From an uncultured Phycisphaerales bacterium (lineage in GTDB: Bacteria; Planctomycetota; Phycisphaerae; Tepidisphaerales; Tepidisphaeraceae): DNA of 64,000 nucleotides. The position numbers and the translations under genes are program-made. The notes beneath the pieces were generated by a model. That model was not told the origin of the DNA. It was given only the letters and a program-made list of their open reading frames with translations, and made no database searches. Location of the stretch: positions 997,805-1,061,804 of the forward strand of contig CAVSQX010000001.1 in the NCBI GenBank assembly GCA_963730225.1. Direction: 5' to 3'. Below are positions 6,878 to 59,721 of the stretch, in pieces (positions within the stretch are counted from its first letter, which is position 1; the number at the start of each line of letters is the position of its first letter).

Positions 6878-6909
6878 TCGTCGGTGGAACGAGCGGTGCC
6901 GTCAAGCGA

Positions 6910-7870: not shown

Positions 7871-7896
7871 TCCGCAGATGCGACGCAAAGCGAAAC

Positions 7897-19502: not shown

Positions 19503-20557
19503 TTGGGGAAGAAACCGATCGTGTAGCCGTCGGGCGTTGTCACGGTGAAATTGCGCAGCGTGTGATCGTCGGCGAACGGGCTGACCTGGATCGCTTCGGC
19601 CGCGATCGCGCTTCGGTGAGCGGTCAGCGCCTGGGGACCGCCGTTGATCCAGAAGAACAGACCGACGCCCGGTGACGGGCGGGAGCCTTCGGCGTCGGAG
19701 GCCCGGCGCAGCCAGATTCGCCCCGCCCCGCCCACCAGGCTTGCCCGCGGGAGCCGGCCCATGGCATCGGGTGTTTCCCGCCAGCGCGGCTGGAAGCCGA
19801 GCTTCTGGAAAAAGTCGATGTTGGTTTCCACGTCCTTCACGCAAAACTCGGCGCTGACAACGGGGAATTCGCTGATTTTGGCTTGTTCGGCCATGGCAAT
19901 CGTTCCTTTGGCGAGCAGATCAATTCGTTTCCTGCGGCCGGTCCTAATGAGCGGCGCGCGGGCGTCCGCGGTGATTTTCATTTTTCCGATCAATTCATCG
20001 GGAATCGCCTCGATTCCATCCTGCAACAACAATTGGCGGATCGCCGCCAGGGCGCGAGTGACCCGTTTGTGCGCCGCTTCGGGAGAGATCGCCAGTGAGT
20101 GGGCGATCGCGGTGAAATTCTCGCCGAGAAAGAATCGACGAACCACGGCGTCGCGGTCGGACGCGGGTAGCCGGGCGATCGTCGATTCGAGCAACCCGAC
20201 CAGCTCGCCGTCACCTTCGGCAGTGCTGGATTCACGGGTCCGACCTTCCAAGCCGGCCCACGTTTCGTGCCGAGCCCGGCGGGCGCACGACCGCAGGGCT
20301 CGGGCACAGGCGAAATGCAACACTTCAAAGAGCCAAGCCGCCAGCGATCGCTGACCGGACCCGATGAGCCGCCTGCCCTGCGTCGCCAGCACGACAAAGA
20401 CGGCTTGCGTGGCGTCATCGGCGAGGTGATCGTCGCGCAGTCGGCGGCGGGCGGTGGCAAAGATCCAGCCGGCGTGTCGCTGCGTCAGCCGGCTGAAGGC
20501 CAACTCGTCGCCGTGGCGATGATACGCGCGGAGCAACTGGAAATCGGAAATCTCCAC
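19490..20557 (-). CDS. ECF-type sigma-70 factor fused to a C-terminal VOC/glyoxalase-like domain
   Basis: Sigma-70 region 2 (AFSRLTQRHAGWIFATARRRL) and region 4 (DAVVRRFFLGENFTAIAHSLAISPEAAHKRVTRALAAIRQLL). The C-terminal 130 aa have a VOC pattern (FCVKDVETNIDFFQKLGF...DGYTIGFFP). Confidence 0.8.
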   Translation of the reverse strand: MEISDFQLLRAYHRHGDELAFSRLTQRHAGWIFATARRRLRDDHLADDATQAVFVVLATQGRRLIGSGQRSLAAWLFEVLHFACARALRSCARRARHETWAGLEGRTRESSTAEGDGELVGLLESTIARLPASDRDAVVRRFFLGENFTAIAHSLAISPEAAHKRVTRALAAIRQLLLQDGIEAIPDELIGKMKITADARAPLIRTGRRKRIDLLAKGTIAMAEQAKISEFPVVSAEFCVKDVETNIDFFQKLGFQPRWRETPDAMGRLPRASLVGGAGRIWLRRASDAEGSRPSPGVGLFFWINGGPQALTAHRSAIAAEAIQVSPFADDHTLRNFTVTTPDGYTIGFFPNYRD

Positions 20558-33685: not shown

Positions 33686-34801
33686 TTATAGCGGGATCAA
33701 AGAGCCAAGGCGAAAAAAGGGGAACGACGAATGAGGTACTTCGTAGATCATTCGGGAATTTGCGCTGATCCGATTTTCCGCCTTGGGCAGGCGAAGTTCG
33801 GACCGCGGCGGAGCGGTGGAGGCGCGGACAATCAGATCTTCGGGGACTCGAATTTCGGTTCCCTGATGGGCCCGTGGAGAAAGCAGGCCGTTGAGAAGAA
33901 GATCCGCGCCGATTCGGCCCATCTCGCGGCCGGAGACGGCGACGGCCGTCAGCGGGGGAGCAAGCAAGGCAACGGGGAAAACATCATTGAAACAGATCAG
34001 GCTGAAGTCGGCGGGAATGCGCAGATTCATCGCGTCGGCCGCGCCAACCAGCATTACGGCGATGTGATGATCGTAAGTGATGACGGCGGTGGCGTTGTCT
34101 TCGATGACGGCGCTGCGGAGAAAATCGGTGGCGGAGGAAAATGGCGTGTCGTGGCCCGCCACCAGCCGCATGGAGCGCTTGCGGACGCCGGCCAGAAGCG
34201 TCTCGTAACGGTCGGTGACGCTGTAGTGGCTGAAATAGGTGGCGCGGGCGTTGGCGTAGGCGATGCGCTTGTGGCCAAGCTGTTGAAGATGTTCGATGGC
34301 TCGGTTGGCGCCCATCACATCGTCGGCCAACACGTAGGCGACGGGGTTGCCGACTCGCTCGTTGACGCAAACATAGGGAACACGGCGGCGGTCGAGTTCC
34401 TTGACGGTTTCGGACTTGGGGGCCTGCATCAGGATCGCGCCATCGAAACGCCAGAAGGGAAGAGCGCGCTCCAGATCGCTGATGGCGCTGAGCTCGAAGA
34501 AGACATCGTATCCGCCGGCGTGCAGAACTTCGGCCAAACCTTCGATCAGCGATTCGTTAATTCCTTCGGCGACGTGCGTTTGCGGGGAAGCAAAAAGGCC
34601 GACGATGCGCGTGCTGCGGCGATTGAGATTGCGGGCGGCCAGATCGGGGACGTAGCCGAGCTTGCGGGCGGTGTCGAGAATTTTTTCGCGGACCGCCTCG
34701 CTGGCGGAGAATTTTTGCTTGCCGTTGAGAACGCGGCTGACCGTGGCGGGGGTTACGCCACAGAGCTTGGCCACGTCGGTGATCGTCGGACGGTTCCCCA
34801 T
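33686..34801 (-). CDS. LacI-family transcriptional regulator
   Basis: Start at ATG 34801 gives the canonical HTH MGNRPTITDVAKLCGVTPATVSRVLNG, followed by a periplasmic-binding-protein-like sugar-binding core. The ORF in the track extends 13 codons further to 34840. Confidence 0.85.
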   Translation of the reverse strand: MGNRPTITDVAKLCGVTPATVSRVLNGKQKFSASEAVREKILDTARKLGYVPDLAARNLNRRSTRIVGLFASPQTHVAEGINESLIEGLAEVLHAGGYDVFFELSAISDLERALPFWRFDGAILMQAPKSETVKELDRRRVPYVCVNERVGNPVAYVLADDVMGANRAIEHLQQLGHKRIAYANARATYFSHYSVTDRYETLLAGVRKRSMRLVAGHDTPFSSATDFLRSAVIEDNATAVITYDHHIAVMLVGAADAMNLRIPADFSLICFNDVFPVALLAPPLTAVAVSGREMGRIGADLLLNGLLSPRAHQGTEIRVPEDLIVRASTAPPRSELRLPKAENRISANSRMIYEVPHSSFPFFRLGSLIPL

Positions 34802-34882
34802 GGGGGGAAGTATATCATGACTGGGGTCGAAACCATTCATGGGAAAAGCCAGCCCGCCCGGCCCGGTGGGCCGGCATAAACG

Positions 34883-36670
34883 TCAGGGGATCGATACCTC
34901 GGCCCGTGCGCCGCTGTGTGTGAGATCGACGGAATCGGTTTTGGTTTTGTCGGTGGTGATGGCGTAGGCGCCGAAGAATCCGCGAAAATGGGCCTGGCCC
35001 TGGGAATCTGTGGTGGTTGTGACATCGGTTTGCCATTGATGATGGACGAGATCGATGTACATCTGGCCATGGGGCCGCAGCGTCCAGTCGTCGGCGTAGA
35101 GCGCTCCCTGAGGCCGCCAATGCCGCTTGGACCAGAAACCCCAGAGCGTGATTCCTTTCACACTGGGCTCCGAAAATACAGCGATGAGATAATCGCGCAG
35201 GTAATCCGCCTGGAGTTGTCGGTCCGTCAGATCGAGACTCACTTCCGTCGATTCGATGGGCAAACCCAACTCGCTGAAATGATCGAGCACGTGAATAATC
35301 TGCGCCGGCGCGGGCAGATCGGTGCCGAAATGGGATTGAACGCCGATGCCGCCCAGCGGCGCGCCGTTTTTCTGGAGATACTGGATGGTGCTGTAGTACG
35401 CGTCGCGGTGACTGTTGACCTCGCCCCCCTCGACGATGCCGTAATCGTTGATGAATAGCGCGGAAGTGGGATCAGACTGGTGAGCGAGATTGAACCACTC
35501 GAGCATGATGCTACGGCCGCCCAGCGCGTCGACCAGATCATGATTGGCGTAAACTTCATTGACCACATCCCACTGAAAACACTGGCCGCGGAAGTGGGTC
35601 ATCATGAGCGTGATGTGATCGTCGATGCGGCGGCGCAGCTCGGGCGGATCGTTGGCGAACTGCTGGAGTTGCCTGGGCGACCAGTGCCAACTGGGCCAAA
35701 CCAAGTTGTGCCCGCGCACGGCGATGTGATGCGCCCGCAGCCAATCCATCGCCTGATCCACCTGCGGCGGAATGCCGTCCCAGGTGGCGTACCACTTCAT
35801 GTCGTTCTCGAACGTGGCCTGGTTAAAAAGCTCGGCGACGGTCTTTTGGTATTGAATATCATCGGGTGAATCTCCCAACAGATCGGCGGCGACAACACAC
35901 GTGCCCCAACCGAAGGCGTGGCGCTGAAGCACGGCGTGGATCGGGGCTCCGATCGTCGGTTTACCGGACGAATCGGTCACCTGGATGGTGAAATCGCCTT
36001 TGCGGATTTGCTCGATCCGAGCCAACGCCTGGGCACGCCAAGGGGCATTGGGATCATGCCCGACGTAGTCCTTGCTCGTGCGCGGCAGCGTTTCCAGCTT
36101 GGCATCGGGCCCGAGGTCGAGCAGTTCGATGCCGCCGATTTCGACGGTCTGACGATCAAATCCTTCGAAAAACGCGATCTGGCCCTGTCCGGTAGGAACA
36201 GCGCGGCGGGCGCAGAACGGAAGAAAACATTCCTTCCACTGCCCGCCAGCGCTGACGCGGAGTTCGGCCATTGGATCGGAATTACCGGCGCCGAAAATGA
36301 ATCGCGTGAAACCCTGAGCGGTCGCTGATTCGTCGCAGCGCAGGAAAAAATGCGCGAGAAGCACATCGTTGGCGGCGACGGCGCCGGTGGTCGCGGAAAT
36401 CAATTCGCTGTTCGACTCGGCCGTCGCACCGGAATCAGTGGAGATTTTCATCGCTTGCGTGAAGCTCTTACCATCGACCGACACCGGTGCAACGTGGCAG
36501 AGATTCGCTTGCGAGCCTGTCACGTGAAGGGCGTTGAGAACATCGGCGCCGAGCAGAGACTTTCCCGACGGGACAGGGTCCGCGGCAAAGGCGAAGGAAG
36601 CTATACCGCAGACCAGCGCCGCGGCCAGAGTTCCACGCTGCCGCCACTGGGGTTTGGATCGGCGGAGCAT
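34883..36670 (-). CDS. Glycoside hydrolase family 10 endo-1,4-beta-xylanase with an N-terminal carbohydrate-binding-like domain
   Basis: Signal peptide. The GH10 blocks WDVVNEV (acid/base glutamate) and IESTEVS (nucleophile glutamate) and WGFWS are present. The N-terminal about 200 aa are CBM4/9-like. Confidence 0.85.
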   Translation of the reverse strand: MLRRSKPQWRQRGTLAAALVCGIASFAFAADPVPSGKSLLGADVLNALHVTGSQANLCHVAPVSVDGKSFTQAMKISTDSGATAESNSELISATTGAVAANDVLLAHFFLRCDESATAQGFTRFIFGAGNSDPMAELRVSAGGQWKECFLPFCARRAVPTGQGQIAFFEGFDRQTVEIGGIELLDLGPDAKLETLPRTSKDYVGHDPNAPWRAQALARIEQIRKGDFTIQVTDSSGKPTIGAPIHAVLQRHAFGWGTCVVAADLLGDSPDDIQYQKTVAELFNQATFENDMKWYATWDGIPPQVDQAMDWLRAHHIAVRGHNLVWPSWHWSPRQLQQFANDPPELRRRIDDHITLMMTHFRGQCFQWDVVNEVYANHDLVDALGGRSIMLEWFNLAHQSDPTSALFINDYGIVEGGEVNSHRDAYYSTIQYLQKNGAPLGGIGVQSHFGTDLPAPAQIIHVLDHFSELGLPIESTEVSLDLTDRQLQADYLRDYLIAVFSEPSVKGITLWGFWSKRHWRPQGALYADDWTLRPHGQMYIDLVHHQWQTDVTTTTDSQGQAHFRGFFGAYAITTDKTKTDSVDLTHSGARAEVSIP

Positions 36671-36678
36671 AGTGGCGG

Positions 36679-37698
36679 TTAGTAGTTTGGGTTCACGTAG
36701 ATGTTCTTGCGCAGAAGGGAGGTCGTTGCATTAACGGTGGTCGTGCCGGTTTTAATCATCTTGAGCGTAAAGCTCTCAACATGGCCATCGACCATCAGCA
36801 CGTTACACACTGTGTTATTCAAGTGACGAAAGCGAATGTTGTTGGGATTCGCGGAGGTATCGGTATTCCAATACTTGGCCGCGGGGCTAGCTGTCGCGCC
36901 GGCGGGAGTCATATCGATTTGATCATTCGGGCGCAGACCCGTGTTGGCGGGGAGTGAATAGTCATCGGTGAAATAGGTGGTTCCCGATCCATATGAGTTG
37001 CTGCCCGGGTAAAAAAGGCGCCAGCCATCCATGGATCCGGCAACAGGGTAAGTGTACCAAGGACCCCAACTGAGCGCGTCGGCGTCGGTGACACCGACTT
37101 GCGTGTTCGGGGCCAGCGAATCATCAAACACGATGCCGATTTCCGCGCTTCGCTTGATGTTGGATTGGTGATACGGGACCGGCCATCTGCCGGTAACGGC
37201 ATCTCGAACAACATTGTTGTCCAGAACCGGCATCAATCGCGGATTGCAAGCGTAATGGCCGATGGTTATCCATCCCTGGCCGGGCGCGTCAGGGCACAGA
37301 AAAGTCTGCCTGCTGATCTGCATCAGCACGTTGGCGTTGGCGACTTCGTTGTAGCTGTTCCCATTCTTCCCGTTCATCGTGTACTGGAGCAGATTGACCC
37401 AATTCGAAGCTAACACGGTATTGGGTTGATTGCTGGTTGATACGAAACCGGTTTGCGAATTGTAGTACCCGTCCCACACCCCAAACGGCAGGACGCCTTT
37501 GCTGTCGATGCAATAGATGGCCAGCATCTGACCAATGCTGTGCAAATTGGCCTGGCACTTCAGAGAATTGGACTGCTGGCGGGCTTTGTTTAGCGCGGGG
37601 AGGAGAATCGAGATCAGCAAAGCGATGATCCCAATGACAACCAGCAGTTCAACTAATGTAAAACCCGAGAAGCGAGAGGCGTTTTTGGCGCTCCGCAT
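36679..37698 (-). CDS. DUF1559 domain protein (prepilin-type N-terminal methylation motif, type II secretion pseudopilin-like)
   Basis: Start [40 protein letters not shown] is a class III signal peptide/prepilin motif. It lies 8 bp upstream of the GH10 start. Confidence 0.85.
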
Positions 37699-37761
37699 TG
37701 GTTTCTCCTGCATGTCCGCCAGCGGCTCGACGAGGGAAGCATTCCTCGCCGCCAGTTCCAA

Positions 37762-37775
37762 GGTAAACGTTTACC
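37762..37775. promoter_or_regulatory. Predicted LacI-family operator, a perfect 14-bp palindrome GGTAAACGTTTACC
   Basis: Perfect palindrome with a central CG. On the minus strand it sits 1 nt downstream of the TACGAT -10 element (37777..37782), which has TTGACC at -35 (37800..37805) with a 17-bp spacer. It is about 65 bp upstream of the DUF1559-GH10-LacI operon start. Confidence 0.6.
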
Positions 37776-37909: not shown

Positions 37910-37953
37910 TTGACGAGCCCCGACCAGCTGATATATTTGGGTAATCGTTTACC
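37910..37953 (+). promoter_or_regulatory. Sigma70-like promoter (TTGACG-16 bp-TATATT) followed directly by operator copy GGTAATCGTTTACC (37940..37953)
   Basis: -35 at 37910..37915 and -10 at 37932..37937. The operator starts 3 nt after the -10. Located about 115 bp upstream of the PEP-CTERM gene start (38067). Confidence 0.55.
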
Positions 37954-39295: not shown

Positions 39296-39309
39296 GGTAA
39301 ACGATTACC
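39296..39309. promoter_or_regulatory. Predicted LacI-family operator copy GGTAAACGATTACC
   Basis: Same 14-mer as the other three sites. It lies 18 bp upstream of the GH52 start codon (GTG 39328). Confidence 0.5.
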
Positions 39310-39327: not shown

Positions 39328-41583
39328 GTGTCGGCAGTACCGCCGCCCTTTGGCGGGAATATAAACTTCAACGCCCAGCATTCGCCGATGGGGGCGTTCA
39401 TGAGCTTCACCTGCGGGCACTTCGGCAGCGGCGGTGGCATCGGCATTGAAATCGGCAGGCCCGCGACCCAGAGCATCTACGTTGGCGTGAAGAAGGGAAC
39501 CCGGCGGTCCAATCAACCGATCCGCTGCCTGCCATTTGCCAAATCCGGCGCGGCTGGGTCCGGAGCAAATTTCCAGGTTGAAAACTCCACCGATTCACCC
39601 GGCAACGCCGGCGCATCCGTGGAATTCTATTCGCCAGATCAGATTACCCGGCGATACGGCTGGGCGAGCGACCGTTGGGATACGGAGGACTTCTCTTTCA
39701 CCATATACACGCCCTTTGGTCCGATTCCCGAGCCCGGCACCGATTCCGATACATTGCGCGAATCGCTGCTTCCCGCCGTGGTCGTCTGTCTCGAGGTGGA
39801 CAATCGCTCCGGTTCTGAACCGAAGACGGCCGTTTTTGGAATCGACTTCGCTGAGGCCGGCGCCCGGCTGCTTCAAGGCGGCGACGCCTGGGCCGACGGG
39901 CCGGCAAAACTGGGCTTCGCCTGGCGGCGAAGCATGGGCGTGCTGGGCATGGTCGAAGGCTCCGCCGCCGGAAGCGGAGGCGGTTTACTGGCGCTCCAGC
40001 GCTGGTCGCTTGCCGAGGCGCTGATCGATGTGAATCCGGCGCACGGATTGGGAACCAGCGCGGGGCTGGCCCTGGAAGTGGCCGCCGGAAGCAAGCGAAC
40101 GATGGTGTTGGCCATCGGCGCTCATTTGGATGGAGTCGTCACCACCCGCCTGGAAGGCCGATATTACTACACTCGATTCTACAGCAGCCTCGATGAAGTG
40201 CTTGCCGCCGCCTTGCAGCAGTCGGCCGATCTGCGCCTGCGCTCGGCTTTGCTGGACGCCGAACTTCTTTCCAGCGGATTGTCTACCGATCAGCAGTTTC
40301 TCATCGCCCACGCTACCCGCAGCTATTACGGAAACACTCAGCTTCTGGACGTCGGCGGCGAACCGTTCTGGATCGTCAACGAGGGGGAATACTGCATGAT
40401 GAACACGCTGGATCTTTCGGTCGATCAGGTGTTCTGGGAGTTGCAGCACAATCCGTGGGTGGTTCGCAATGTGTTGACGAACTTCGTCCGGCACTACGCC
40501 TATCACGATCAGGTGAAAACGCGCGGTGGTCAGGTGCTGCCGGGCGGAATTTCCTTCGCACATGACATGGGCGTCAACAACGGGTTTTCCGCTGCCGGCC
40601 AGAGCAGCTACGAGCTGGCCAATCTAACCGGCTGCTTCTCGTATATGACGCAGGAAGAGCTGTGCAACTGGATTCTGATGGCGGTCTGTTATGTAGCTCG
40701 GACCGGCGACACGCGCTGGCTGCTGGAGAACGGGCACGTCATCGCCGCCTGCGCCGACAGCCTGCGCTGCCGCGCGAACTTGCGAACCGGCATGATGGCC
40801 CACGACAGCACCCGCTGCGGAACGGGCCAGGAAATCACCACCTACGATTCTCTGGATGAATCGCTTGGCCAGGCGCGGGCCAATACATATTTGGCGACCA
40901 AGTGCTGGGCGACATGGATTGGACTGGATTTGCTGGCACGCCTGCGCAGTGCCACCGGAGCGGAGGATTCCTCCGATACGGGGCCGAACCTCGCCGACGA
41001 TCTGGCGGATTTCCTGGTGCGCTCGGCTACGGCCGAAGGAACGCTTCCCGCGGTGCTGGAGAAAGATAATCCGGGATTTCATTCGCGGATTCTGCCCGTG
41101 GTCGAAGCCCTGATCTATCCGGCTTATTGGCTGGGTTGCTTGCAGCAGCACGCTCCGGCGCAGATTACCGAGCCGCTGCGCCGGCGATGGTCCGACCCGT
41201 TGATCGACCTGCTGCGCCGCCACACGCTGGCGCTGCTGACGGACCCGGGTCGTCCCAATCTTTTCCCCGATGGAGGGATCAAGCTTTCCAGCAGTTCGAA
41301 CAATTCGTGGATGAGCAAGATCGCCATGTTTCAATTCGTCTGCCGCGCCGTTCTGCGGCTGACTGACGCCGAGCCGCGCATCGCTGATATCTTTGCGGCG
41401 GCCGACGCGGCCCACGTTTCATGGCAAACGCTTGGATGCGGTCATTGGGCGTGCAGCGACCAATTCGTCAGCGGACGAGCCAAGGGAAGCCGGTATTATC
41501 CAAGAGTCATCACCGCAGCGCTGTGGCTGGACGAAAAATCCGCCGCGCGGTTGAAGCCGGCGGCGGAGCGGGTACCTCAGTAA
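39328..41583 (+). CDS. Glycoside hydrolase family 52 beta-xylosidase (cytoplasmic)
   Basis: No signal peptide. Colinear with Geobacillus XynB2-type GH52. Matching blocks include NFNAQHSPMGAFMSFT, RSYYGNTQLLDVGGEPFWIVNEGEYCMMNTLDLSVDQVFWEL, GISFAHDMGV, ITTYDSLDESLGQAR, FPDGGIKLSSSSNNSWMSKI and GSRYYPRVITAALWLDE. Confidence 0.85.
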   Translation: MSAVPPPFGGNINFNAQHSPMGAFMSFTCGHFGSGGGIGIEIGRPATQSIYVGVKKGTRRSNQPIRCLPFAKSGAAGSGANFQVENSTDSPGNAGASVEFYSPDQITRRYGWASDRWDTEDFSFTIYTPFGPIPEPGTDSDTLRESLLPAVVVCLEVDNRSGSEPKTAVFGIDFAEAGARLLQGGDAWADGPAKLGFAWRRSMGVLGMVEGSAAGSGGGLLALQRWSLAEALIDVNPAHGLGTSAGLALEVAAGSKRTMVLAIGAHLDGVVTTRLEGRYYYTRFYSSLDEVLAAALQQSADLRLRSALLDAELLSSGLSTDQQFLIAHATRSYYGNTQLLDVGGEPFWIVNEGEYCMMNTLDLSVDQVFWELQHNPWVVRNVLTNFVRHYAYHDQVKTRGGQVLPGGISFAHDMGVNNGFSAAGQSSYELANLTGCFSYMTQEELCNWILMAVCYVARTGDTRWLLENGHVIAACADSLRCRANLRTGMMAHDSTRCGTGQEITTYDSLDESLGQARANTYLATKCWATWIGLDLLARLRSATGAEDSSDTGPNLADDLADFLVRSATAEGTLPAVLEKDNPGFHSRILPVVEALIYPAYWLGCLQQHAPAQITEPLRRRWSDPLIDLLRRHTLALLTDPGRPNLFPDGGIKLSSSSNNSWMSKIAMFQFVCRAVLRLTDAEPRIADIFAAADAAHVSWQTLGCGHWACSDQFVSGRAKGSRYYPRVITAALWLDEKSAARLKPAAERVPQ

Positions 41584-43710: not shown

Positions 43711-43753
43711 GGTAAACGATTACCTACAATACTTCGGGTTATGGGCGTGTCAA
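43711..43753 (-). promoter_or_regulatory. Sigma70-like promoter (TTGACA-16 bp-TATTGT, minus strand) followed directly by operator copy GGTAATCGTTTACC (43711..43724)
   Basis: Read on the minus strand the sequence is TTGACAcgcccataacccgaagTATTGTaGGTAATCGTTTACC. The operator ends about 30 bp upstream of the ATG (43679) of the dockerin/PEP-CTERM gene. The site is also in the divergent region upstream of the ABC transporter operon (43834). Confidence 0.6.
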
Positions 43754-48402: not shown

Positions 48403-48770
48403 TCAACTTCTACGCCGTCGTCGCCAAAGAACGGCCGCGGCAACCGCGGCGACGCCCAAATTTCCCGGCTCCGGCACGGCTGCCAAGGATCCGCCGGCAA
48501 TCTGCGACGTTGGGATCGCCACCATCTCCATTGGCTCCGCCGCCAGCGATGCCCCCTGCGTATTGAACGCATTGTCAATGAGCGTGTAGTCGTCGCCGTT
48601 GACGACGCCGTCGTAATTGAAGTCTCCGTTGTGCCACCCCGTCAGCGTGTTGTTAAAGCCGTTATCGATCAGCGTGTAGTCGCTGCCATTCACAACGCCA
48701 TCCAAATTGGCATCACCAAAATAAGTGTACTTCACCAACACGTCGGTGCTGGTGACGCTCTGACCATCGA
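48403..48770 (-). repeat. Paralogous C-terminal anchoring cassette (copy 2 of 2)
   Basis: Dockerin pair plus PEP-CTERM module shared with the 41607..43679 gene. The two dockerin pairs differ at only two residues (NNNLTGWRNG versus NNTLTGWHNG). Confidence 0.7.
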
Positions 48771-51700
48771 AGCTGCTGAGCAGAACTCCCCCGGAACCGT
48801 TGCTGTTCAACTCGACGCCCAGAGCCGTATTCGACAAGGCGGCCGCCGAGGATGACGTAATGCCCGCCGTTCCGTGCCAATTACCCCCATTGTATCCCTG
48901 GGCAATCTGGCTGGTGATTGCCGTGGCGTTGCCGTTGTGCACGACTAAATCGTTGCCGCTCAGGTCCATCAATCCCGAATTGCTCAGCGACCCCGTGATC
49001 AGCACCGTGCGATTGGCCGAGGCCGACGGTGCCGCGATCGAAAGGGTGGCCGGCGTGGCGCCGATCGCAAGCGAGCTCCAGGTGCGAGCGAGAATCCCGC
49101 TACCGGGATTGGCGCCGACTTTGATCGTGCCGTCGTCCGTGACATTCGGCGTGTTGGTGAGCAGGCCGTTAATGTTGCCCGTCGCGCCGGAGGCGACGTT
49201 GAAGTTGGCGCTGGCGATCGTGCCGCTCGCAGCCAAGGTCAGCACGCCATCGTTGACGTTGGTGTTTCCGCCGTAGGTGTTGATGGCCGTCAACGTTACC
49301 GTTCCAGCGCCGTTTTGATTGACCACCCCGCCACCGCCGATCGCGTTGGCGACCATCAAGCCTGCATCGCCGCGGTTGAAATTCAGCGTATCATTATCGG
49401 TGACCGGCCCGGTGCCCAGCGTTCCGCCGCTCCCGCCGTCGCCAATTTGCAATATCCCGGCGGTGATCGTCGTGCCGCCGCTGTAGGTGTTGGCTCCGGA
49501 GAGAATCACCGGCTCCTGCGCAGCTGGAGCGGTCGGGGCGTTAACCTTCACCAGCGCGATATTGCCGGTGATCGCGCCGGTGAAATCGGAAGCGGTTGGC
49601 CCGACGCCGTTGCCGGTGCCCAGCGAGAGCGTGGAAGTTATGCCGGTCTGTGAATTGATAAGCGTTCCCGACCCGGTCAGCTTGTCGAACCCCTCGCTTT
49701 GGCCGTTCATGTCGAAGGTGCCGTTCATGTTGAAGACGCCGAAATCCGTCGTCCCGGTGACAAAGCCGTCATAAATCTGATCGCCGCCGGTGCCGGCCAA
49801 TTGCAGGACCGCGCCGGGGCTGACACCGGTGACCGTCGAGGCGGCGTGAGCGGTGCCGCTGCTGGTCTTGCCGAGGACCAGCGTGCCGGACGTGACAGCC
49901 ACCTCGACATTGGTGTTGTCCGTCGTTCCCGTCAGCAGAATCACGCCGGTGCCGTTCCCGTTGGCAGTGAGAATGTGGCCCGCTCCGGGCGCCGGCGCCG
50001 CGCCGTCAACCTGAAGTTCCAGAGTCGAGTCGGCGGCGGCGACGATGTTGGAATTCCCGACCAGCGTGAACGTGCCGGTGGCCGGTGAGACGGCTGCGTT
50101 TCCGGTTTTCAGCACAGCGCTGGAATTGGGCAGATTATTTTCCAGTGTGCCTGCGCCCGTGGCGTCTCCGAGACTGAGATTGAAGATCGTTTCGCTTTGC
50201 CCGTTGAGATCAAAAACTCCACCGTCGTTGATCGTGACACCGCCGGCCAAATCATAAATCTGATCCCCGCCGCTGCCCGTGATCTGGGCGGTGCCGCCGT
50301 TGTTGATGACCAATCCGCCACCGCCGACGGCGTGCGCGGCGCTGCTGGAAGTCTTGTTCAGCAAAACGGTGCCCTGGTTCACCGTAACGCCCAGACTCGC
50401 ATCGTCCGCCGTGCCGGAGATGATCAGGGTGCCAAGCCCCGTCTTGACGATGCCCGCTCCATCACTGCTGCGCGAAACCGCGCCGGTGAACTCCACGTCG
50501 CCGGCCAGCCCATCGGGCAGCAGGCCCGCAACGGCAGCGACGTTGTACGTGACGGTATTGCCGGCCAGCGTTTGGGTGCCGCTGAGAATCAACTTGCCAA
50601 CATTCTGCACCGTGGTGGCCGCGCTGGCGGTGATCGCATTGGGAATGGTCGTCGCCGACGCATAATTCAGCGTGAGCGTGCCCCCGCCCAGAGTCAGCGT
50701 CCCGCCGAATCCGGAAATGTCGCTGCTCAACACGACCAGCGAGCTTGCTCCGCTGATGCCGAAGCTGCCGCTGCCGGAAAGCGCCCCGGTGATCGACAGC
50801 GTGTCTCCGTCGGTCGACGCAAAACTCACGGCCTCTCCGGGATTGGACATCGGCGTGCTCAGCCCGATCGATTGATTCGCCGCTCCGCCGGCAGGCACGG
50901 ATTGGAACGCAGTGACGGTGGAGTTGTTCAGAATCGTAATCGGATTGGTAAACGTGTAGCTGGCCGAAGCGCTCAGGCCCATGTTGCCGCCGTCGAGCAG
51001 GATCGTCGCGCCTCCCAGGCTGCTGTTGACGCCGTCGCTCTCGCCGGCCAGTGTGCCGTTTTGAATATCGTACGACGTGCCCGCCGTCGCGCCGGAAATC
51101 GTGTTGCCCAGCGTCCACGTGCCCGTGCCAAGCATCACGACATTTCCGCTTCCGCTCAGTGAGTTGGTCAGTACGCCGTCGCCCGCGCCGCCGAGGGTGA
51201 GCGTGGAAGTACCGTTGGTGATCGTGCTGCTGACGGTGAGAAGTTGTCCGGCCGTCGCGTTGGAAATTCCGCCACCGCCGGCCGCCAGGGTGAGACCGCG
51301 CGTGAGCGCGGCACTGTTCCCGGTGTATTGCAGTGTGCCGGAATCCACCGTCGCATCACCCAGCGTGATGTTGTTCGAGCTGGTGCCCAGTGGCTGGGCC
51401 GTGCCCGACGCCGCCAGCGCCGAAACGCTGAGCGTGCCGTTGGGGACCGCAACGTTGCCGCTGTAGGTGTTGGCTCCGCTGAGGAAAAGCGTCCCGCCGC
51501 CGGCGACTGTCAGACTTCCGCCGCCGCCGGTGATGGTTCCGCCGAAGCTGCCGGAGCCGACCGTCAGCGCGGTCGGTCCATTCAAGTGCACCGTTCCGCT
51601 GCTGCCGCCCAGGGACGCGATGGTTTGGCTGGCATTGCTGAATGTCGCCGCTCCGTTCACCGTCAGCGCATCGCCGCCGCCCAGCGCCGGCCACATTCAG

Positions 51701-54700
51701 CGAACCGGCCAGGCCGACGTTGATCACGCCGCCGTCGAATGTGCTCGCCGCCCCGACAGAAATCGACCCGGCGTTGATCGTGGTCTTGGCAGAAGTAACG
51801 CTGGTGTTGAACGTCACCGATGCAAGTTGATTCTTGACGATGCCCGCGCCGGCCGTGACGGTGATCGGACTGCCGCTAAAAACGTAACTCAGCGAGTTGT
51901 TGTTGAAGACAATCGAGTTGGGCGACATGCCCGGCGATTGAACCGCGACCGTGCCGGTGGAGGCGCTGTCGTCGAAAATAACATTCGCGCCCGTCGAGAA
52001 AACGTTCCCCGCCCCCGCCGACGTCCAGTTGGGAGTGTTGGTGTCCCAGAACGTGGGATTGGTGGCATCATTGCCCACCCAGGTGAGCGTCGGATTCCCC
52101 TGCAAAACCTCCAGAACATACGCGTTGCTAGCGAAGGATGGATAATTCGCATCGCCCGGCTTGAGCACGGCGTAGTTGTAACTGGTGCTGCCGTTGATGC
52201 TCCAGTTAAACGTGCTGCTGCCCGGGAATACGCCGCCGCTGGCATCAATCAAATCGTAGAAGGCCGTGTTGCTGCCGCCGCCGTTGCCGAAGCCGGGAAG
52301 CGCGGTGATGTTGAGCGTGATCGTTCCGCTGGAGGGAACCGCCAGCGTTCCATACTCCTGAACCAGGTCGCCCGTGCCAAACGATCCCACGGCCGATGCC
52401 CCGAAGTTGTAATCGAGCGTCGCTCCGGCGTTGAGCGTCAGGTTGCCGTTGAGGGTCAAAGTGTTGGTGGTTGTCGGCGACATGGCCGGATCGAGATGCC
52501 CCGATGAACTAACCGTAACCGGCCCGTAGATCGTTCCGTTTCCGCCCAGAGCCGCCGCCGCCGAGCCGTTGCCCACCGTAACCGGCGTCGTCGATAAGCT
52601 GGCCGAACCTGTGGTCGATGTTCCGTTGCCCACCAGCAGCGTGCCGCCGTTGATAGCGGTCGCGCCGGTGTAATCGTTGAAGCCGCTAAGGTTCAGCGTT
52701 CCGGTTCCCACCTTGGTCAGCGAGACATTCGTTGCCGACGTACCGTGATCGCCGTTGGTGTGGCTGGCCGCCCCAACCGAGAAGGTCTGGCTCTGAGCGC
52801 CCAGGTCGCCGGAGTACGTTGTGGAGAGATTATTCTGCCCGACGGTCAGCGCCGCCGCCGTCGTTCCGACATTGATGATATATCCATTGCCCGACAGCGA
52901 GCCGAATGTTTCGGAATGCCCCGACAGGTTCAACAGGCCGATGCTGCTGTTGGAATTGGGGATGCTTGTCACCGTGACAGCCGACGTGTTGGGCACCTGG
53001 TTGTTGGCGTTGAAGAAAATCACGCTGCCGATCGCGTTGCCGTACCCGTTGGAAGGCATCGTCTCGAACGTCGTGGGGCCCGAATACGTGTTTGCGCCGC
53101 TGGTGGTGTTGATCTCAATCGCATTGGCCAGCGGAGCGGGACTAGCGCCGGCATTATTGATGAACGGCTCCGAAAAATACGTCATCGCGCCGCTGCCGGC
53201 GATCTGGTAGGGCTGAAGAATCGTCGTGTTTCCGCCGTTGTATGCGATCGTCCCGCCCTGAGGCCCGACCATCACGCCTCGCTGTGAACTGAACGTGAAG
53301 GTCCGCGTCATCAACAGCGTCCCGCCATTCAACACCAGGCTGTTGGGCGTGTTGGTGGCCGGAACCGCTCCCAAGCCCGAATCGTTGCCGATGATGAGCG
53401 TTCCGCCGTTGATGGTCGTGTTCCCGGTGTACGTGTTGGCCGGGAACGAACCGGCGGTGTACGTGCCTTGCCAGTTTCCGTTGCTCAGATCCAGAATTCC
53501 CGATCCGTCTTTAGTCAGGCCGATGCTTCCGAAAATCTGCGCGTTGATGCGAAGATTGCTCGCGGTTGTCACGATCAAATCCGGCCCGCTCGACGTGATT
53601 TTTCCAAGCTGGCCAACGGTCGTGCTGGCGGCGGTTTTGTTATCGCCGTCGCTGTTGAACGTGGTGTTCACAATTCCGTTGCCCAGGACCAGGGCATTGG
53701 GAATGCTCGGTGTGTTGTACGAGGCCAGCGTCTGAGTTCCCGCATTGGCGATAATTCCGCCCGAGCCGATCACCAGTGTGTTGGTCGTCGTGGAAAGCGA
53801 AATATTTCCCGTACCGGTCAGATAAAGCGAGTTGATCGTCGTCGAGGCCGCCGTCAAAGTGACCGTCCCGGCGCTTCCATCCACCTTGGTGTTATTGCCC
53901 GGCGCAGTAAAGTCGTTCAGATTGTACGTGGCCAGCGGCGCGATTTGGCCGCCGCTGACGGTGGCGAAATCCAGCGTGTTCGGCGAAGCGCTGCTGTTGG
54001 GGTTTCCCACCGTGGCCCAGCCGCCGATGATGCCGCTGCTCAGCGTCACATTCGGCACGTTGAACGTTCCCGTGCTGGAGAAATTGACCGCCGCCCCGCT
54101 GCTGCGGGCAAAACTGGCCAGCGACGCCGAACCCAGCGTCAGCGCCGCGCCGGCATCGGCGTTCACATTGGTCAGCCCCGTTGTCAGCGTCAGCGTGCCG
54201 ACCGTTTCGCTCGCCGTTGATCCCATCAGGTAAACCGTGCCGCCGCGCGAGCTGATGCCGACGCTGTCGCCGATGCGGTTTGTGTTGTTGCCCGAAGTGT
54301 TGTCGATCTCCAGTACCGTGCCGCCGTCCAGCGAAATCCCCGAGGTGTTCAAACTCCCGCTGCTTCCCGACAGATCCAGCGTGGTGCCGTTGCCCGAAAG
54401 GCTGGTGCTTCCCGAGTAACTGTTAGCGCCGGACAAAATAAAAGTCTCCGAGCCCGCCAGCGTCAGATTGATTCCGCTTCCCCCGACCGCTCCGCTAACC
54501 GTTACCGCGCTGGAAGTGTTGTTCGTCCACGTCTGATTTGCCCCCAGTGTCACCGCCGTCGAAATCAAATTGCTTGCCGAAGCATTATTGGTCAGCCCAC
54601 CCGCTCCGATCGTCAGCGTATTGCCGCCGCCGATGGTAACTCCGCTCGTATCATCCTGCGTAAAGCTCAGACTGTTGATGCTGAAGTCTTGCCCCAGCGT

Positions 54701-55075
54701 GGTATTGAGATTGACTGCGCCGGGAAGATTGAAATAAACATCGTCTCCGCTTCCGGGCAGGGCGTTGGAATCGTTATCGAAATCGTCGGAGGAAGACCAG
54801 TTCACATTGGCCGGCCCGCCGGTGGTGTTCCAAACCGTGTCGTGATCCCCGGTCCAGAAAAATGATGCCGCTGCCGCCGAGCCCGCCATCGCCCCACTGG
54901 CCGACAACGCTGCCGCCAGCAGAGCCGTTCCCGACCACTGCTTTCCGCCATGCCGATGATGCCGCGCGTAGCCGATTCTCCGCCGAATCATGGAACCCTC
55001 CATCTGGAAATGAAACCTGCCGCACTCCAGCAATCGCTCAGACCTGTCCACGGTACAACGTAGATCGCCCTCCAC
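48403..55075 (-). CDS. Giant (about 2,200 aa) cell-surface protein with PATR (autotransporter-associated beta-strand) repeats, a C-terminal dockerin pair and PEP-CTERM anchor; split by an apparent frameshift near 51690-51720
   Basis: N-terminal part 51356..55075 has a signal peptide (MIRRRIGYARHHRHGGKQWSGTALLAAALSASGAMA; likely start about 54991) and repeats of LTLSGANSYSGSTSLSG type. C-terminal part 48403..51696 continues the same repeats (GGTLFLSGANTYSGNVAVPNGTLSV...) in another frame. The upstream tail after ...SLNVAGAG is Arg-rich junk. Confidence 0.8.
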
Positions 55076-55081
55076 GGCGCA

Positions 55082-55121
55082 GCCACGTTGTTTTGCGCCA
55101 AATGTTCTCTGTTTTACGACA
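55082..55121. promoter_or_regulatory. About 39-bp conserved element (copy A), ccacgtTGttttgcgccaaaTGttctctgttttAcgacag
   Basis: The reverse complement matches 56318..56356 at about 35 of 39 positions. It lies upstream of the giant surface-protein gene and downstream of xylR. Confidence 0.55.
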
Positions 55122-55151
55122 GATTATTCAAAGGCGAGTAACCGCAAGATT

Positions 55152-56294
55152 CTAAGATTTGAGATCTCGCCCGCCGATGCGAGCCCGCCGGCGGTATTCG
55201 GTCGGTGGATGGCCCAACTGCTTCTGAAAAACAATCCCCAGCCGCGTCGCCGTCGTGAACCCGCAGGCGCCGGCGATCTGCGGCATCGAAAGATCGGTCG
55301 AAATCAAGAGCTGCTTGGCCCGCTCAATGTGCGCCTGCCGAATCGCCGCCGAAACCGAATGTCCCACCGCCAATCGAAATCGCCGCTCCAGCGATCGCCG
55401 CGATACCGGCACATGCTCCACAACATCATCGACCTGAAGCGGACGATTGCTGTGATCGCGAATAAATCGCAGCGCCATCGCCACCTCCTGGTCGGCGACG
55501 TTCAGAACATCCGTCGATTCCCGTGCCACGATCCGCACCGGCGGCAGACGGATCGGCTCCGACGGCGGCGTCTCCTCGTTCAACATCCGATCCAACATCG
55601 CCGCCGCCTCGAATCCAACTTGCTCGGTCGGAATGGCGATGCTCGAAAGCGACGGCGTCACCAGCGTGTTGAAAAGCTCGTCGTCATCGACGCCGATCAC
55701 CGCCAATTCATCCGGAATTCGCACCCCGTGCCGCCGGGCGGCGTTGAGTGCGCGATGGGCCCAGTCGTCGTTGCATCCCATCAGCCCCGCCGGCTTGGGA
55801 AGATTCGCCAGCCACGAACCAATGTCCTGCTTCTCATCGGCGACATATTCATGCACCGACGCGCCTCCATCCGATGCGCGGCGGGCAAATGCCTCCAATC
55901 GAATCCGGCCAAACTCCGTGTTGCCCGCCCACGAAAAGGCGAGATTGCGAAACCCCAGCGACAGCAGATATTCCGCGCCCATGCGTCCGATCGCCGCATC
56001 GTCGGGAATCACCGTCGGCAGACGAAACGCATGATTGCAGAAGTTGGAAACATTCGCCGCCGGCAGCCCCCGGGCCAGCACCGCATCCTCAAACTCCCGG
56101 CTGAATGTCTGAACGATCATCCCATCCACATCCCACTCGTGAATCCCCGGATGCGTGCCGAACGACCAGAGCGGCTCGACCGCGATCATCCAATGTGGAT
56201 TTGCCCGGCAGAACGCCATCACCCCGCGGATCACCCCCCGGCCATACGAGGCCACCGCGTCAATCGCCAGACCAATTCGACGGGTTTCGTACAT
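55152..56294 (-). CDS. xylR: XylR-type transcriptional regulator (AraC family with an N-terminal periplasmic-binding-protein-like sugar-binding domain)
   Basis: The N-terminal about 270 aa are LacI/PBP-like, with IGVDDDELFNTLVTPSLSSIAIP. The C-terminus is an AraC-type HTH (RRSLERRFRLAVGHSVSAAIRQAHIERAKQLLISTDLSMPQIAGACGF...FQKQLGHPPTEYRR). This architecture matches E. coli XylR. Confidence 0.8.
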   Translation of the reverse strand: MYETRRIGLAIDAVASYGRGVIRGVMAFCRANPHWMIAVEPLWSFGTHPGIHEWDVDGMIVQTFSREFEDAVLARGLPAANVSNFCNHAFRLPTVIPDDAAIGRMGAEYLLSLGFRNLAFSWAGNTEFGRIRLEAFARRASDGGASVHEYVADEKQDIGSWLANLPKPAGLMGCNDDWAHRALNAARRHGVRIPDELAVIGVDDDELFNTLVTPSLSSIAIPTEQVGFEAAAMLDRMLNEETPPSEPIRLPPVRIVARESTDVLNVADQEVAMALRFIRDHSNRPLQVDDVVEHVPVSRRSLERRFRLAVGHSVSAAIRQAHIERAKQLLISTDLSMPQIAGACGFTTATRLGIVFQKQLGHPPTEYRRRARIGGRDLKS

Positions 56295-56317
56295 GATTTG
56301 TTAGCATAACACATTCG

Positions 56318-56356
56318 TGTCGCAAAACAGAGAAGTTTTGGCGCAAAATGACGTGG
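56318..56356. promoter_or_regulatory. About 39-bp conserved element (copy B), tgtcgcaaaacagagaagttttggcgcaaaatgacgtgg
   Basis: Inverted copy of 55082..55121. It lies in the divergent region between xylR and the DUF1559-GH5 operon, about 45 bp upstream of the DUF1559 start. Confidence 0.55.
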
Positions 56357-56396
56357 CATACTGGTTGGTCGACCGCGAAAATCCAGTTCCTGTCGC

Positions 56397-57398
56397 ATGG
56401 AGCGAAAAATGGAATCGAGGGCCGCACGCCCGAATAGGTCATTCAGCGTCTGCTCCCGTCTCGCCGGCTTTACGCTGGTTGAGCTGCTGGTGGTCATCGG
56501 CATCATCGCGCTGCTGATTGCCATCTTGCTGCCAGCGCTCCAGAAAGCCAAGCAACAGGCGAATCTGGTGACATGCCAAACGCATTTGCGGCAGATCGGG
56601 CAACTCATTCAACTCTATGCCAGCGAGAACAAGGGATATCTGCCTGTCGGTGGTAACCACGCCATTGCGCAGAATCTGCAATACGACTGGAGTACAACGC
56701 TGTTCGCGCTGATGAACAGCAAGGTTGGAAACACTCTGCTGTTGCAAACCAGCAATACAACCGCTCTGCCTTACGATCGCAGTATCTTCATGGACGTCGA
56801 CACGGATTTTGGATGGGGTGGTTTGCAGTATTCTTGTCACCCGCGATTGATGACCGAATTAACACAATATACTCCCGATTATCCAGATCTCTCCGCAAGC
56901 TCGACCGGCGTGCCCGAATACCGGATGTCGCAAATTAAGCGAAACGCCGAAATTATTTTAATTTTCGATGGCTCGTTGATCGCTTCCAACGCGACGGATT
57001 ATGCCGGTAATTCGCACGCCAGCCTGACCTACTGGTGTGTTCAACCGGTGGCGACAATGATGGATTCAAACCGCGTTGCCCAGACGCCAGCAGTGGCAGG
57101 GGAGCAGGGAACCGGACTTTGGGTAACCCGTTACATACAGCTCTACCATGATCTGAGCAAATCCATCGATGGTGGTACCAATAAGGACTTCATCAACTCT
57201 GGTTCGTTTCCTACCTCCGGGCAATTGACGACGGCTTCGAACAACATATCCAACATTCGTTGGCGGCACATGAACAACACCGTCGCCAACTTCCTCTTCT
57301 GCGATGGGCATGTGGAGGCGAAGCATTACCTGGGCACGCGCAACGGCACCCCCGACGTGTGCGAAATTCAGGAACGTAACATCTGCCTCGATCAGTGA
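56397..57398 (+). CDS. DUF1559 domain protein (prepilin-type N-terminal motif), second copy
   Basis: Prepilin motif [33 protein letters not shown]. The stop overlaps the GH5 start (ATGA 57395-57398). An alternative start lies at 56409. Confidence 0.85.
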
Positions 57399-59721
57399 TA
57401 TGCTTTCGTCTGATGCGCCTCGCGCTGCTTTGTGCCACCCTGATTGCCTTCTCCGCCACCGAGGCGAATGCTCGGCTTCCCTTTCTTCGCCAGGACAAAA
57501 CTCGCCTTGTCGATCCCGCCGGTGCACCGGTTTTGCTCAAGGGCTGCAACATCGGCAATTGGTTTCTTCTCGAACCCTGGATGTTCGGCGGACGACTCGA
57601 GGCCCGCGATCAAACTGACATCTTCACCACCCTCCATCGCCGCTTCGGCGACCAGAAGGCCGATCAACTCATCCAGCTTTACCGCGACAGTTGGATCACG
57701 CCGCGCAATTTTGAGTTGATCAAATCCTTCGGCTTCAACGTCATCCGTCTGCCCATGCACTGGTCCCTGCTCCAGCAAGATCAGCCCCCATATCAAATCA
57801 AACCCGATGGCTTGCTGATGCTCGATCACGCCCTGGCGATGGCCGAAAATGCCGGCGTTTACGTCATTCTCGATCTGCACGGCGCGCCCGGCGGCCAGAG
57901 CACCGACATGCCCACCGGCCTGGTGAATCAGAATCATCTCTGGACCGACCAAACCGACCAGCGCCGCACCGCCGAAATCTGGGCCGCGCTCGCCCAGCGC
58001 TATCACGACCGTTCCGTCGTCGCCGGCTACGACCTGCTCAACGAGCCATACGGCAATTTTCATCAGAACCTTCACAGCGAGCTTCGCAGCCTCATGACGC
58101 GCTTGTACTCCGCCATCCGCTTAGCCGACGATCGCCACGTCGTCTTCTTCCCCGGCGGTTTGGACAAGGGAATCGAATTCTATGGCGATCCCCACGCCAA
58201 CGGCTGGCACGACGTCGGCTTCACCGAACATTTCTACGCCGGCCTTTTCGGCAACAAGCCGGCCGTCGAAAGCCACGCTCGAATTCTCAACCAGGTTTGG
58301 CCCGCCGACGCCGATTATCTCGATCGCATCGCCTCTCCCTACTACGTCGGCGAATTCAACGTCGTCCTTTCCGCCTGCGGCGGGCCCACGATGATGCGGG
58401 AATATTACGATCGCCTCGCCCAAAATGGCTGGACCGGCACCCTCTGGAGCTACAAACTTCTCAGCGCCTCCGGTGGCGTGGGCGAGGACAGTTGGGCCAT
58501 GGTCTCCAACGCCACACCGTTGCCGCGGCTCGATCTGCAAAACAGCTCCTGCGAAAATTTCGAACATTTCTTCTCAAATCTGGCGACCATAGAACTTGCA
58601 ATCAACCAACCCCTTCGCGCCGCGCTCACCGCCCCCGTCGCCGCGCCGCTCCTGCTCACGCAATATCCCCATCCCCCGACCACGCTGCCCTCCGCCACTG
58701 ACTCGACCCCGACTGGCTGGACTTCCACCGACGTCGGCGGCGCCGCGCCGGCAGAACCATCGCCGACGGACCGGGCATGTTGATCCTCTATGCCGGCGGC
58801 ACCGACATCTTCGCCGAACACGATTCGTTCCGTTTCGTCTCCCAACCGCAGCAGATGCGATGCGATCTGCGAGCCCAGGTCGTTTCGCTTTTGGACAGCC
58901 ATATCTACGCCAAGGCCGGGCTCATGGCCCGCTGGGGCGATTCATCCGATGCCCCGTTTGCCATGGTCAACGCCTTCCCCGATGGTTCGATTGCGCTGTG
59001 CAGCCGAAGCGCCGCCGGTCAAGCGGCAACCGAGACACGAGTCTCTGCACCGTTGGATTGGCCCATTCAACTCCGCCTGGCCGTCGACGCCGCCAAGGCC
59101 ACCGGTTTTTATCGTCCACCCGGCCAGGATTGGAAGCCGATCGGTGTCGTCCCCGTGCCCGCTCAACCCAGTTTTCGCGCCGGTCTGGCCGCAACCGCTC
59201 ACGATGCCAATCACTTTACCGTCGCCCGATTTCACCTTGGCGATGATTCCATCGCCACCTCGCCAGTGGCCAGCCCGTCGGCGAATCTGCATGAGCTTCC
59301 GGCATCCTGGAATCGCTGGGGAAATGGATGGTCGCTGGAGACCGGCGGCTCAGACATGATCTATCACCATCCAGGCACGGCCGACGGTTCGGGCCTGTGG
59401 CAGGATGTGGCCGTCGAAGCCGGCAAGCAGTACATCTTCTCCGTCGCCGCCAGCCGAAATCAGACGAGCTTCACTCGCGGATCGACCAACATTCAGCTTC
59501 GCCTGGAATCGCCGCGGGCCGCTGGCAACTGGACGCTGAACTTCGCGGACTATCGTGCCGGCCAGCTCTCCGACGCGCCCGGCGGAACTCGACTCCACGT
59601 CGCCGCCAGCGCGCCGACTGGCCGATTGCGTGTCCTGATCACCATCACGTCCGACGCTCGCGGCGCTGCCGACGATCGCCTGCGCCTGTTCGGGGCTTCG
59701 CTGAAGCGCGCCGACGATTAG
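57395..59721 (+). CDS. Glycoside hydrolase family 5 enzyme with a C-terminal beta-sandwich/CBM-like extension; apparent frameshift near 58750-58776
   Basis: Signal peptide [28 protein letters not shown]5 blocks LLNEPYG (acid/base glutamate) and YVGEFN (nucleophile glutamate). The track's ORF stops at 58783, but frame +1 continues from [31 protein letters not shown] for 314 aa (ORF 58777..59721). Confidence 0.8.

Follow-up and report, generated by a model that had tools for sequence, protein, structure and literature searches.

A direct-repeat element in two inverted copies around a xylR-like gene as a predicted operator and promoter module of its XylR-type regulator in a Phycisphaerales bacterium

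Activators such as AraC at I1-I2, RhaS, MelR and those of the XylS type occupy tandem half-sites that share one helix face at a spacing of about 21 bp; the proximal half-site abuts or overlaps the -35 of an activator-dependent promoter. XylR of Escherichia coli binds sites of about 37 bp, IA and IF, at the xylAB and xylFGH promoters, each made of two direct repeats and adjoining the -35 of one of two outward-directed promoters with poor -35 and -10 hexamers; binding depends on xylose, and one dimer loops the DNA between the sites (Ni et al. 2013, PMC3561964). In Vibrio, XylRA binds a motif of two direct repeats at five promoters of a beta-1,3-xylan utilisation locus, as shown by electrophoretic mobility shift assay, the motif having been found by cross-genome comparison (PMC12125979). 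Here we describe a 40-bp element that stands in two inverted copies around a xylR-like gene in a stretch of 64,000 nucleotides (64 kb, the window) from an uncultured Phycisphaerales bacterium (contig CAVSQX010000001.1). Judged from sequence, the two copies are likely to be binding sites of the XylR-type regulator, each fused to an outward-facing promoter.

A repeat search returned the arms 55082-55121 and 56318-56357 as 40 nt of 88% complementarity, 1196 nt apart and about 1.24 kb from centre to centre (Table 1). Read in the same sense, the left copy (reverse complement) is TGTCGTAAAACAGAGAACATTTGGCGCAAAACAACGTGGC and the right copy TGTCGCAAAACAGAGAAGTTTTGGCGCAAAATGACGTGGC, and their direct comparison gave identity at 35 of 40 positions, which collapses right outside the 40 nt at both edges. 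The original prediction of an inverted pair around xylR thereby holds, as does its count of four mismatches for 39 nt, while the full arms of 40 nt have five, the right one reaching 56357. The copies form the best inverted 40-mer pair of the whole window, where 10 first-order Markov shuffles reached 28-30/40 and none of 100 shuffles gave a match within 3 mismatches. A third copy is absent from the window, the next-best matrix score being 3.6 bits against 45-49 for the two copies. By position and strand both copies read in the same orientation toward their outward flanking genes, as had been proposed: the right one ends 39 nt before ATG 56397 and 51 nt before ATG 56409 of a DUF1559 gene and lies 23 nt from the xylR ATG, and the left one ends 90 nt before ATG 54991 of a giant PATR-repeat surface-protein gene.

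Table 1. Features of the window discussed in the text, with positions counted from its first nucleotide
Feature	Position	Strand	Remarks
Left copy of the 40-bp element	55082..55121	-	30 nt past the xylR-like stop codon; reads toward the PATR surface-protein gene
Left copy, distal half-site TGTCGTAAAA	55112..55121	-	Element position 1
Left copy, promoter-proximal half-site TGGCGCAAAA	55091..55100	-	Element position 22
Predicted -10 TACGTT, PATR-gene promoter	55057..55062	-	Fixed-register alignment; predicted start near 55050
Right copy of the 40-bp element	56318..56357	+	In the divergent gap that separates the xylR-like gene from the DUF1559-GH5 operon; reads toward the latter
Right copy, distal half-site TGTCGCAAAA	56318..56327	+	Element position 1
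Right copy, promoter-proximal half-site TGGCGCAAAA	56339..56348	+	Element position 22, 21 bp from the distal half-site
Predicted -10 GAAAAT, DUF1559-GH5 promoter	56377..56382	+	Element positions 60-65; predicted start near 56389
-10-like TATGCT of the xylR-like gene	56303..56308	-	8 nt before ATG 56294
xylR-like regulator, 380 aa	55152..56294	-	Periplasmic-binding-protein (PBP)-like sugar domain and AraC-type double helix-turn-helix; PF13377 3e-35, PF12833 2e-19
Prepilin-type N-terminal methylation / DUF1559 gene	56397..57398	+	Pfam; first target gene
GH5 glycoside hydrolase	57395..58783	+	PF00150 7e-30; 4-nt overlap with the DUF1559 gene, same operon
Open reading frame (ORF) of 314 aa	58777..59721	+	No family match; overlaps the GH5 end
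Giant PATR-repeat surface protein	51356..54991	-	Longest ORF 51356-55075; start taken as ATG 54991
Second PATR protein with dockerin domain	48403..51696	-	Downstream of the giant PATR gene
N_methyl-GH10-LacI operon	33686-37761	-	Xylan-related; without the 40-bp element
GH52	39328-41583	+	Xylan-related; without the 40-bp element
ATP-binding cassette (ABC) sugar-binding protein	starts 43834	+	Xylan-related; without the 40-bp element
Palindrome GGTAAWCGWTTACC, four copies	37762-37775, 37940-37953, 39296-39309, 43711-43724		Gaps before flanking genes

Relatives of the regulator number in the hundreds, some of them labelled Tepidisphaeraceae, and we compared the DNA around those of 52-74% identity, each such stretch being a locus with an L number. 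A first matrix built from the two window copies alone was scored against shuffled versions of each locus, and the highest shuffled maximum over all loci was 21 bits. Sites were found in L001 (50 and 44 bits, highest shuffled maximum of that locus 17.4), L028 (53 bits, 11.0), L025 (40 and 33 bits, 13.4), L027 (32 and 18 bits, 6.0), L029 (29 bits, 7.6), L026 (28 and 15 bits, 9.8), L004 (29, 25 and 19 bits, 20.3), L002 (24 bits, 13.8), L005 (20 and 15 bits, 17.7) and L015 (21 and 20 bits, 13.7). The marginal ones are those at 14566 in L004 (18.8 vs 20.3), 3854 in L005 (15.3 vs 17.7) and 1040 in L026 (14.7 vs 9.8). A second matrix made from 20 sites, which gives the right and left window copies 58 and 54 bits, was used for L031, L032 and L033, where the regulators are 61%, 60% and 52% identical, and it added six, one or two, and three sites respectively. 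The total stands at 30 sites in 14 loci, a few of the weakest scoring close to the shuffled maxima.

Among relatives of the regulator, the motif accompanies those with identity as low as 52%; of the 14 regulator loci whose DNA could be read, 13 carry it, and so does L015, where the adjoining regulator was recognised from a partial N-terminal reading only. A metagenome scan with the regulator protein returned 6 loci, and all five that were long enough to test carry sites. Every site, judged from sequence or gene calls, lies in a non-coding gap, upstream of and pointing toward the adjacent gene. Scanning genome contigs with the pattern TGTCGYNNNNNNRAGAANNNTTGNCGYRAA gave 19 matches vs about 17 estimated by hand from the information content, and among them only L015 (Tepidisphaerales, two sites, one adjoining a xylR-like start) looked real.

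The genes behind the sites recur. An N_methyl/DUF1559 gene followed by GH5 and sometimes GH3 is the target in the window, L001, L005, L025, L028 and L031; GH1 in L002, L004, L025, L026 and L031; and PATR, PEP-CTERM or CBM6/35 surface proteins in the window, L001, L004, L005, L015 and L033, while the regulator gene itself is a recurrent target. The arrangement varies: in the metagenome contigs L026 and L027 the sites bracket xylR and face outward as in the window (in L026 the DNA reads as a GH5-like gene on one flank and a GH1 gene on the other), in L001 the second site is about 6.5 kb away before a PATR cluster, and in L004 three sites stand in tandem orientation. L031 holds back-to-back divergent pairs at 1347- / 1411+ and 3966- / 4080+ (1347-1450 and 3927-4119) serving both directions. 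In L032 a weak site of 11 bits lies at 16760-16822, with a GH5 gene on one side and a second XylR-type paralogue on the other, which suggests that related XylR-type paralogues use related half-sites.

Each window copy comprises two direct half-sites, TGKCGYAAAA, 21 bp from start to start, followed by a weak -35-like CGTGGC. The internal direct repeat reads CGCAAAAC / CGCAAAAT, and in the left copy CGTAAAAC / CGCAAAAC; CG(C/T)AAAA(C/T) occurs twice per copy at this spacing, so that the CGCAAAA(C/T) direct repeat noticed earlier is present in both. The consensus of the 20 aligned sites is TGtCGCAAaacggAGAA...TTG.CG.gAAA.g.cgT.Gc, with conservation that is column-specific at the half-site cores and not uniform. 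Its strongest blocks, TGnCGCAA (conserved columns of the distal half-site TGtCGCAA) and TGnCGnrAA, are 21 bp or two helical turns apart, and the direct half-sites therefore fall on one helix face. Direct, non-palindromic half-sites about two helical turns apart are the mark of AraC/XylS-type operators; an internal dyad, which in LacI/GalR-type operators spans 14-20 bp, was looked for in the element and none was found.

Downstream of the repeats, all 20 sites have a -10-like hexamer, nAnnnT, with its first base at one of element positions 58-63, and in 12 of them a strict TAnnnT starts at 59-61, against about 0.5 expected from a background of 0.009 per position (more than 20-fold enrichment). 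The hexamer is visible only after the sites are aligned in fixed register; a simple sigma-70 consensus scan of 54700-56700 returned no promoter. Given a spacer of 17-18 nt, the -35 would by analogy occupy element positions of about 36-41, on the CGTGGC tail of the repeat, and the copies may be alike up to position 40 and no further because this tail ends there. In silico, then, the half-sites keep a constant place directly before or abutting the predicted -35, as in AraC/XylS-type systems. Relative to the predicted starts they would be centred near -66 and -45. Where the -35 is poor, AraC-family activators usually have their half-sites near such positions.

The xylR-like genes have a promoter geometry of their own. 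In all divergent cases the xylR start codon is 23-32 nt from the distal half-site, and a -10-like hexamer lies 6-9 nt before it, e.g. TATGCT in the window, TATACT in L001 and TATAGT in L028, the same layout being seen in L001 (about 7985-8003), L028, L026, L027 and the window region 56292-56308(-). No Shine-Dalgarno sequence is visible before the xylR-like genes in these divergent cases. Together these features suggest that the xylR mRNA is leaderless or near-leaderless and that its promoter, with the -35 region, overlaps the distal half-site; occupancy of the operator should therefore affect xylR transcription.

Taken as a mechanism, positions 1-32 of the element would form an operator of two direct half-sites (TGnCGCAA...AGAA / TTGnCGnrAAA), 21 bp apart, and the remainder a weak -35 (CGTGGC, 35-40) of a sigma-70-type promoter with its -10 at about 59-65. 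The bracketed XylR-type regulator would sit as a dimer on the two half-sites and, once loaded with sugar, would recruit RNA polymerase to a promoter that is otherwise poor. With the copies in inverted orientation, one regulator would switch on two units together, the DUF1559-GH5 operon on the right and the PATR surface-protein genes on the left. The right copy also overlaps what is probably a leaderless promoter of xylR itself, and autoregulation of xylR is therefore expected. The identity of the binder, activation over repression, the transcript starts, autoregulation and the identity of the sugar are what we infer here. The original prediction of a shared promoter/operator module gains support from the motif beside regulator relatives, the gene-facing sites, the fixed -10 distance and the recurring targets, and the co-occurrence in the regulator loci argues for its proposal that this would be the site of the bracketed XylR-type activator.

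The likeness to E. coli XylR is close in design. The window regulator matches it over its full length (4FE4, residues 4-368, E 7e-47, phmmer) and has the same architecture, a PBP/LacI-like sugar domain fused to a C-terminal AraC-type double helix-turn-helix. In E. coli and, as predicted, in the window, operators of about 37-40 bp consist of two direct repeats adjoining a poor -35, and two inverted copies drive two outward-facing units. The half-site of E. coli, gaAa-a-a-AAT (x2), is however unrelated to the TGnCGCAAAA seen here, so that the element does not match the known consensus. In E. coli a single intergenic region holds both sites, about 360 bp from each other, and xylR lies downstream, whereas here the distance is about 1.2 kb with the regulator gene in between; the divergent pairs of L031 are closer to the IA/IF layout than the window arrangement is. 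The targets also differ, being xylose isomerase, kinase and transporter in E. coli and GH5/GH1/GH3 enzymes, DUF1559 pilin-like proteins and giant surface proteins here. Vibrio XylRA shares with the present case a XylR-type protein and a motif of two direct repeats before several polysaccharide-degradation promoters; its motif is AT-rich and resembles the E. coli site, unlike the element described here, and its effector was shown to be xylose in a locus that includes xylA/xylB, whereas the present assignment is predicted from sequence only. AraC, RhaS, MelR and the XylS type have the tandem half-site layout of the element but carry cupin-type or other sensor domains that are not PBP-like, and they recognise different sequences.

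Several points weigh against the assignment to this regulator. The site would belong to this protein by virtue of co-localisation with its gene, and the copy number refers to the 64-kb window. The -35-like segment is weakly conserved beyond the closest relatives, and both -10 and -35 are assigned by analogy with sigma-70 promoters in Planctomycetes, where promoter rules are poorly known. Lastly, L003, with a regulator of 68% identity, has no site within 8 kb on either side (17 kb); this absence is uninformative and not contradictory, because the GH5-PATR operon of L003 starts beyond the locus end. The 1.1 kb of uncalled DNA upstream of the L003 regulator (6877-8001) holds no recognisable site.

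As the link to the protein is by co-localisation, the element could instead be a promoter/operator read by another factor, an alternative sigma or a regulator encoded elsewhere, with the XylR-type protein as a co-regulated passenger. An extracytoplasmic function (ECF)-type sigma gene is present in the window at 19490-20557, and a LacI-family gene adjoins xylR in L004. We consider this unlikely, since the motif tracks the regulator relatives in the readable loci (13/14) while other neighbours vary, since a 21-bp-phased direct repeat is as expected for AraC-family dimers and is neither a LacI-type palindrome nor a -35/-10 pair, since a separate sigma-70-like -10 stands at a fixed distance, and since the layout mirrors the proven E. 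coli and Vibrio XylR sites.

A XylR-type protein that binds the element but mainly represses the flanking units until sugar releases it, or that only autoregulates, would agree with the right copy being 23 nt from the xylR start and overlapping the presumed xylR promoter, and with a PBP-like domain shared with LacI-type repressors. At the outward promoters, however, the operator lies upstream of and abutting the predicted -35 and leaves the -10 and the start uncovered. Their -35-like hexamers are poor, a trait of activator-dependent promoters, and E. coli XylR as well as Vibrio XylRA act as activators and need sugar to bind DNA. All of this makes such a reading very improbable.

That the pair is a structural relic without regulatory role, left by the ends of a xylR inversion or insertion or by the terminal inverted repeats of a mobile cassette, has hardly any chance of being right and was not borne out as an alternative of the original prediction, for although the inverted copies, 1196 nt from each other, enclose exactly one gene, with the same bracket in L026 and L027, that gene is a regulator and not a transposase or recombinase, the flanks differ and show no target-site duplication (gcgca left, atact right), conservation is confined to half-site columns, the -10-like hexamer keeps its distance in 20/20 sites, other copies point at genes, and L001, L004, L025, L031 and L033 carry the motif away from xylR or in tandem before other operons. 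Comparison of these five related loci, where the sites are rearranged, thus speaks against the inversion scenario; a motif that is kept while its arrangement shuffles is what would be predicted for a regulon operator and not for an inversion scar.

Returning to activation by the XylR-type regulator, we looked at which sugar it might sense. D-xylose is contacted in E. coli XylR by Tyr18, Asp65, Trp135, Arg139, Asp219 and Gln237 (PMC3561964). The phmmer alignment shows Tyr18, Trp135 and Asp219 conserved in the window regulator, while Asp65, Arg139 and Gln237 are replaced by Phe, Thr and Ile, the alignment at Asp65 being less certain with gaps nearby; the xylose-contacting set is thus incomplete. 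No xylA/xylB, isomerase, kinase or transporter gene was seen behind any site in the subset of ORFs scanned per locus, and the targets do not make up a regulon centred on xylose catabolism or transport (xylAB, xylFGH). As partners, GH1 and GH3 enzymes are as compatible with beta-glucosides as with beta-xylosides. Xylose is probably not established as the inducer: of the original prediction, the XylR-type regulator stands by its full-length match to E. coli XylR, and the xylose/xylan specificity is doubtful, with 3 of 6 contact residues replaced, no xylA/xylB seen among the targets, and an operator of another type, a LacI-type palindrome, before the GH10 and GH52 genes of the window.

The xylan-related genes of the window appear to be controlled otherwise. 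The matrix scan found no weak copies of the element before the window GH10, GH52 and ABC-transporter genes. Instead, a 14-bp palindrome of the GGAAWCGWTTACC type occurs four times, against 0.02 expected, in gaps that precede the N_methyl-GH10-LacI operon (-), a PEP-CTERM gene (37983, +), GH52 (+), a dockerin/PEP-CTERM gene (43679, -) and the ABC sugar-binding protein (+). The palindrome, typical of LacI-type operators, is probably bound by the LacI-family regulator that the first of these operons encodes at 33686-34840 and that would govern a xylan regulon apart from the XylR-type one. Because the xylan genes carry this LacI-type palindrome instead of the 40-bp element, two separate regulons would lie side by side in the window. 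No further XylR paralogue was found among 34 of the 48 long window ORFs, those left of about 45 kb.

With regard to the genes flanking the element, the true start of the DUF1559 gene is possibly ATG 56409, which has GGAG at 56399-56402 with a 6-nt spacer; ATG 56397 would leave a leader of only 8 nt from the predicted transcript start. The closest solved structures of the GH5 enzyme are a putative beta-xylosidase (9KU5) and then exo-beta-1,3-glucanases, and the 314-aa ORF is probably the third gene of this operon. On the left, ATG 54991 has GGAGGG 4-9 nt upstream and a signal-peptide-like N-terminus, and it was preferred as the start of the giant PATR gene because GTG 55075 puts the predicted -10 inside the ORF. 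A terminator-like hairpin at 55017-55033(-) in the PATR leader was set aside as within chance (2 found vs 2.2 expected). The second PATR gene is probably in the same transcription unit, and a BNR_4 protein gene follows it on the same strand. At their longest, the two PATR ORFs (51356-55075 and 48403-51696) have about 340 nt in common (51356-51696), and the true start of the second is probably further inside its ORF.

An N_methyl/DUF1559 gene also stands first before glycoside hydrolases (GH5, GH10, GH30) at 36679-37761 and 56397-57398 in the window and in L001, L005, L025, L031 and L032. The pattern occurs under two different regulators, which hints that pilin-like DUF1559 proteins act with secreted or surface glycanases.

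XylR-type regulators are numerous in Planctomycetota, and our literature search found no operator of this type described for the phylum. The present analysis offers a concrete one, TGnCGCAA-N13-TTGnCGnrAAA with a weak -35, for one clade of them. The mechanism itself is ordinary and repeats the E. coli XylR design in a new example from a little-studied bacterial group; the operator sequence and its link to DUF1559, PATR and GH5/GH1/GH3 are modestly new. As a tentative extension, which we hold to be possible though not the probable case, the motif may define a sugar-inducible cell-surface apparatus for glycan capture in Tepidisphaerales-type Planctomycetota, in which one XylR-type activator would switch on DUF1559 pilin-like proteins, giant PATR/PEP-CTERM/dockerin surface proteins and GH5/GH1/GH3 enzymes, and in which, as in E. 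coli, a single regulator dimer may also join the two outward promoters by looping the stretch of about 1.2 kb with its own gene. If true, this would give the very large DUF1559 family its first regulatory and functional context. Linking DUF1559 pilin-like proteins, giant PATR/PEP-CTERM surface proteins and GH5/GH1/GH3 hydrolases in one proposed regulon would be useful for annotating polysaccharide-use loci and for choosing the conditions in which to study DUF1559 proteins.

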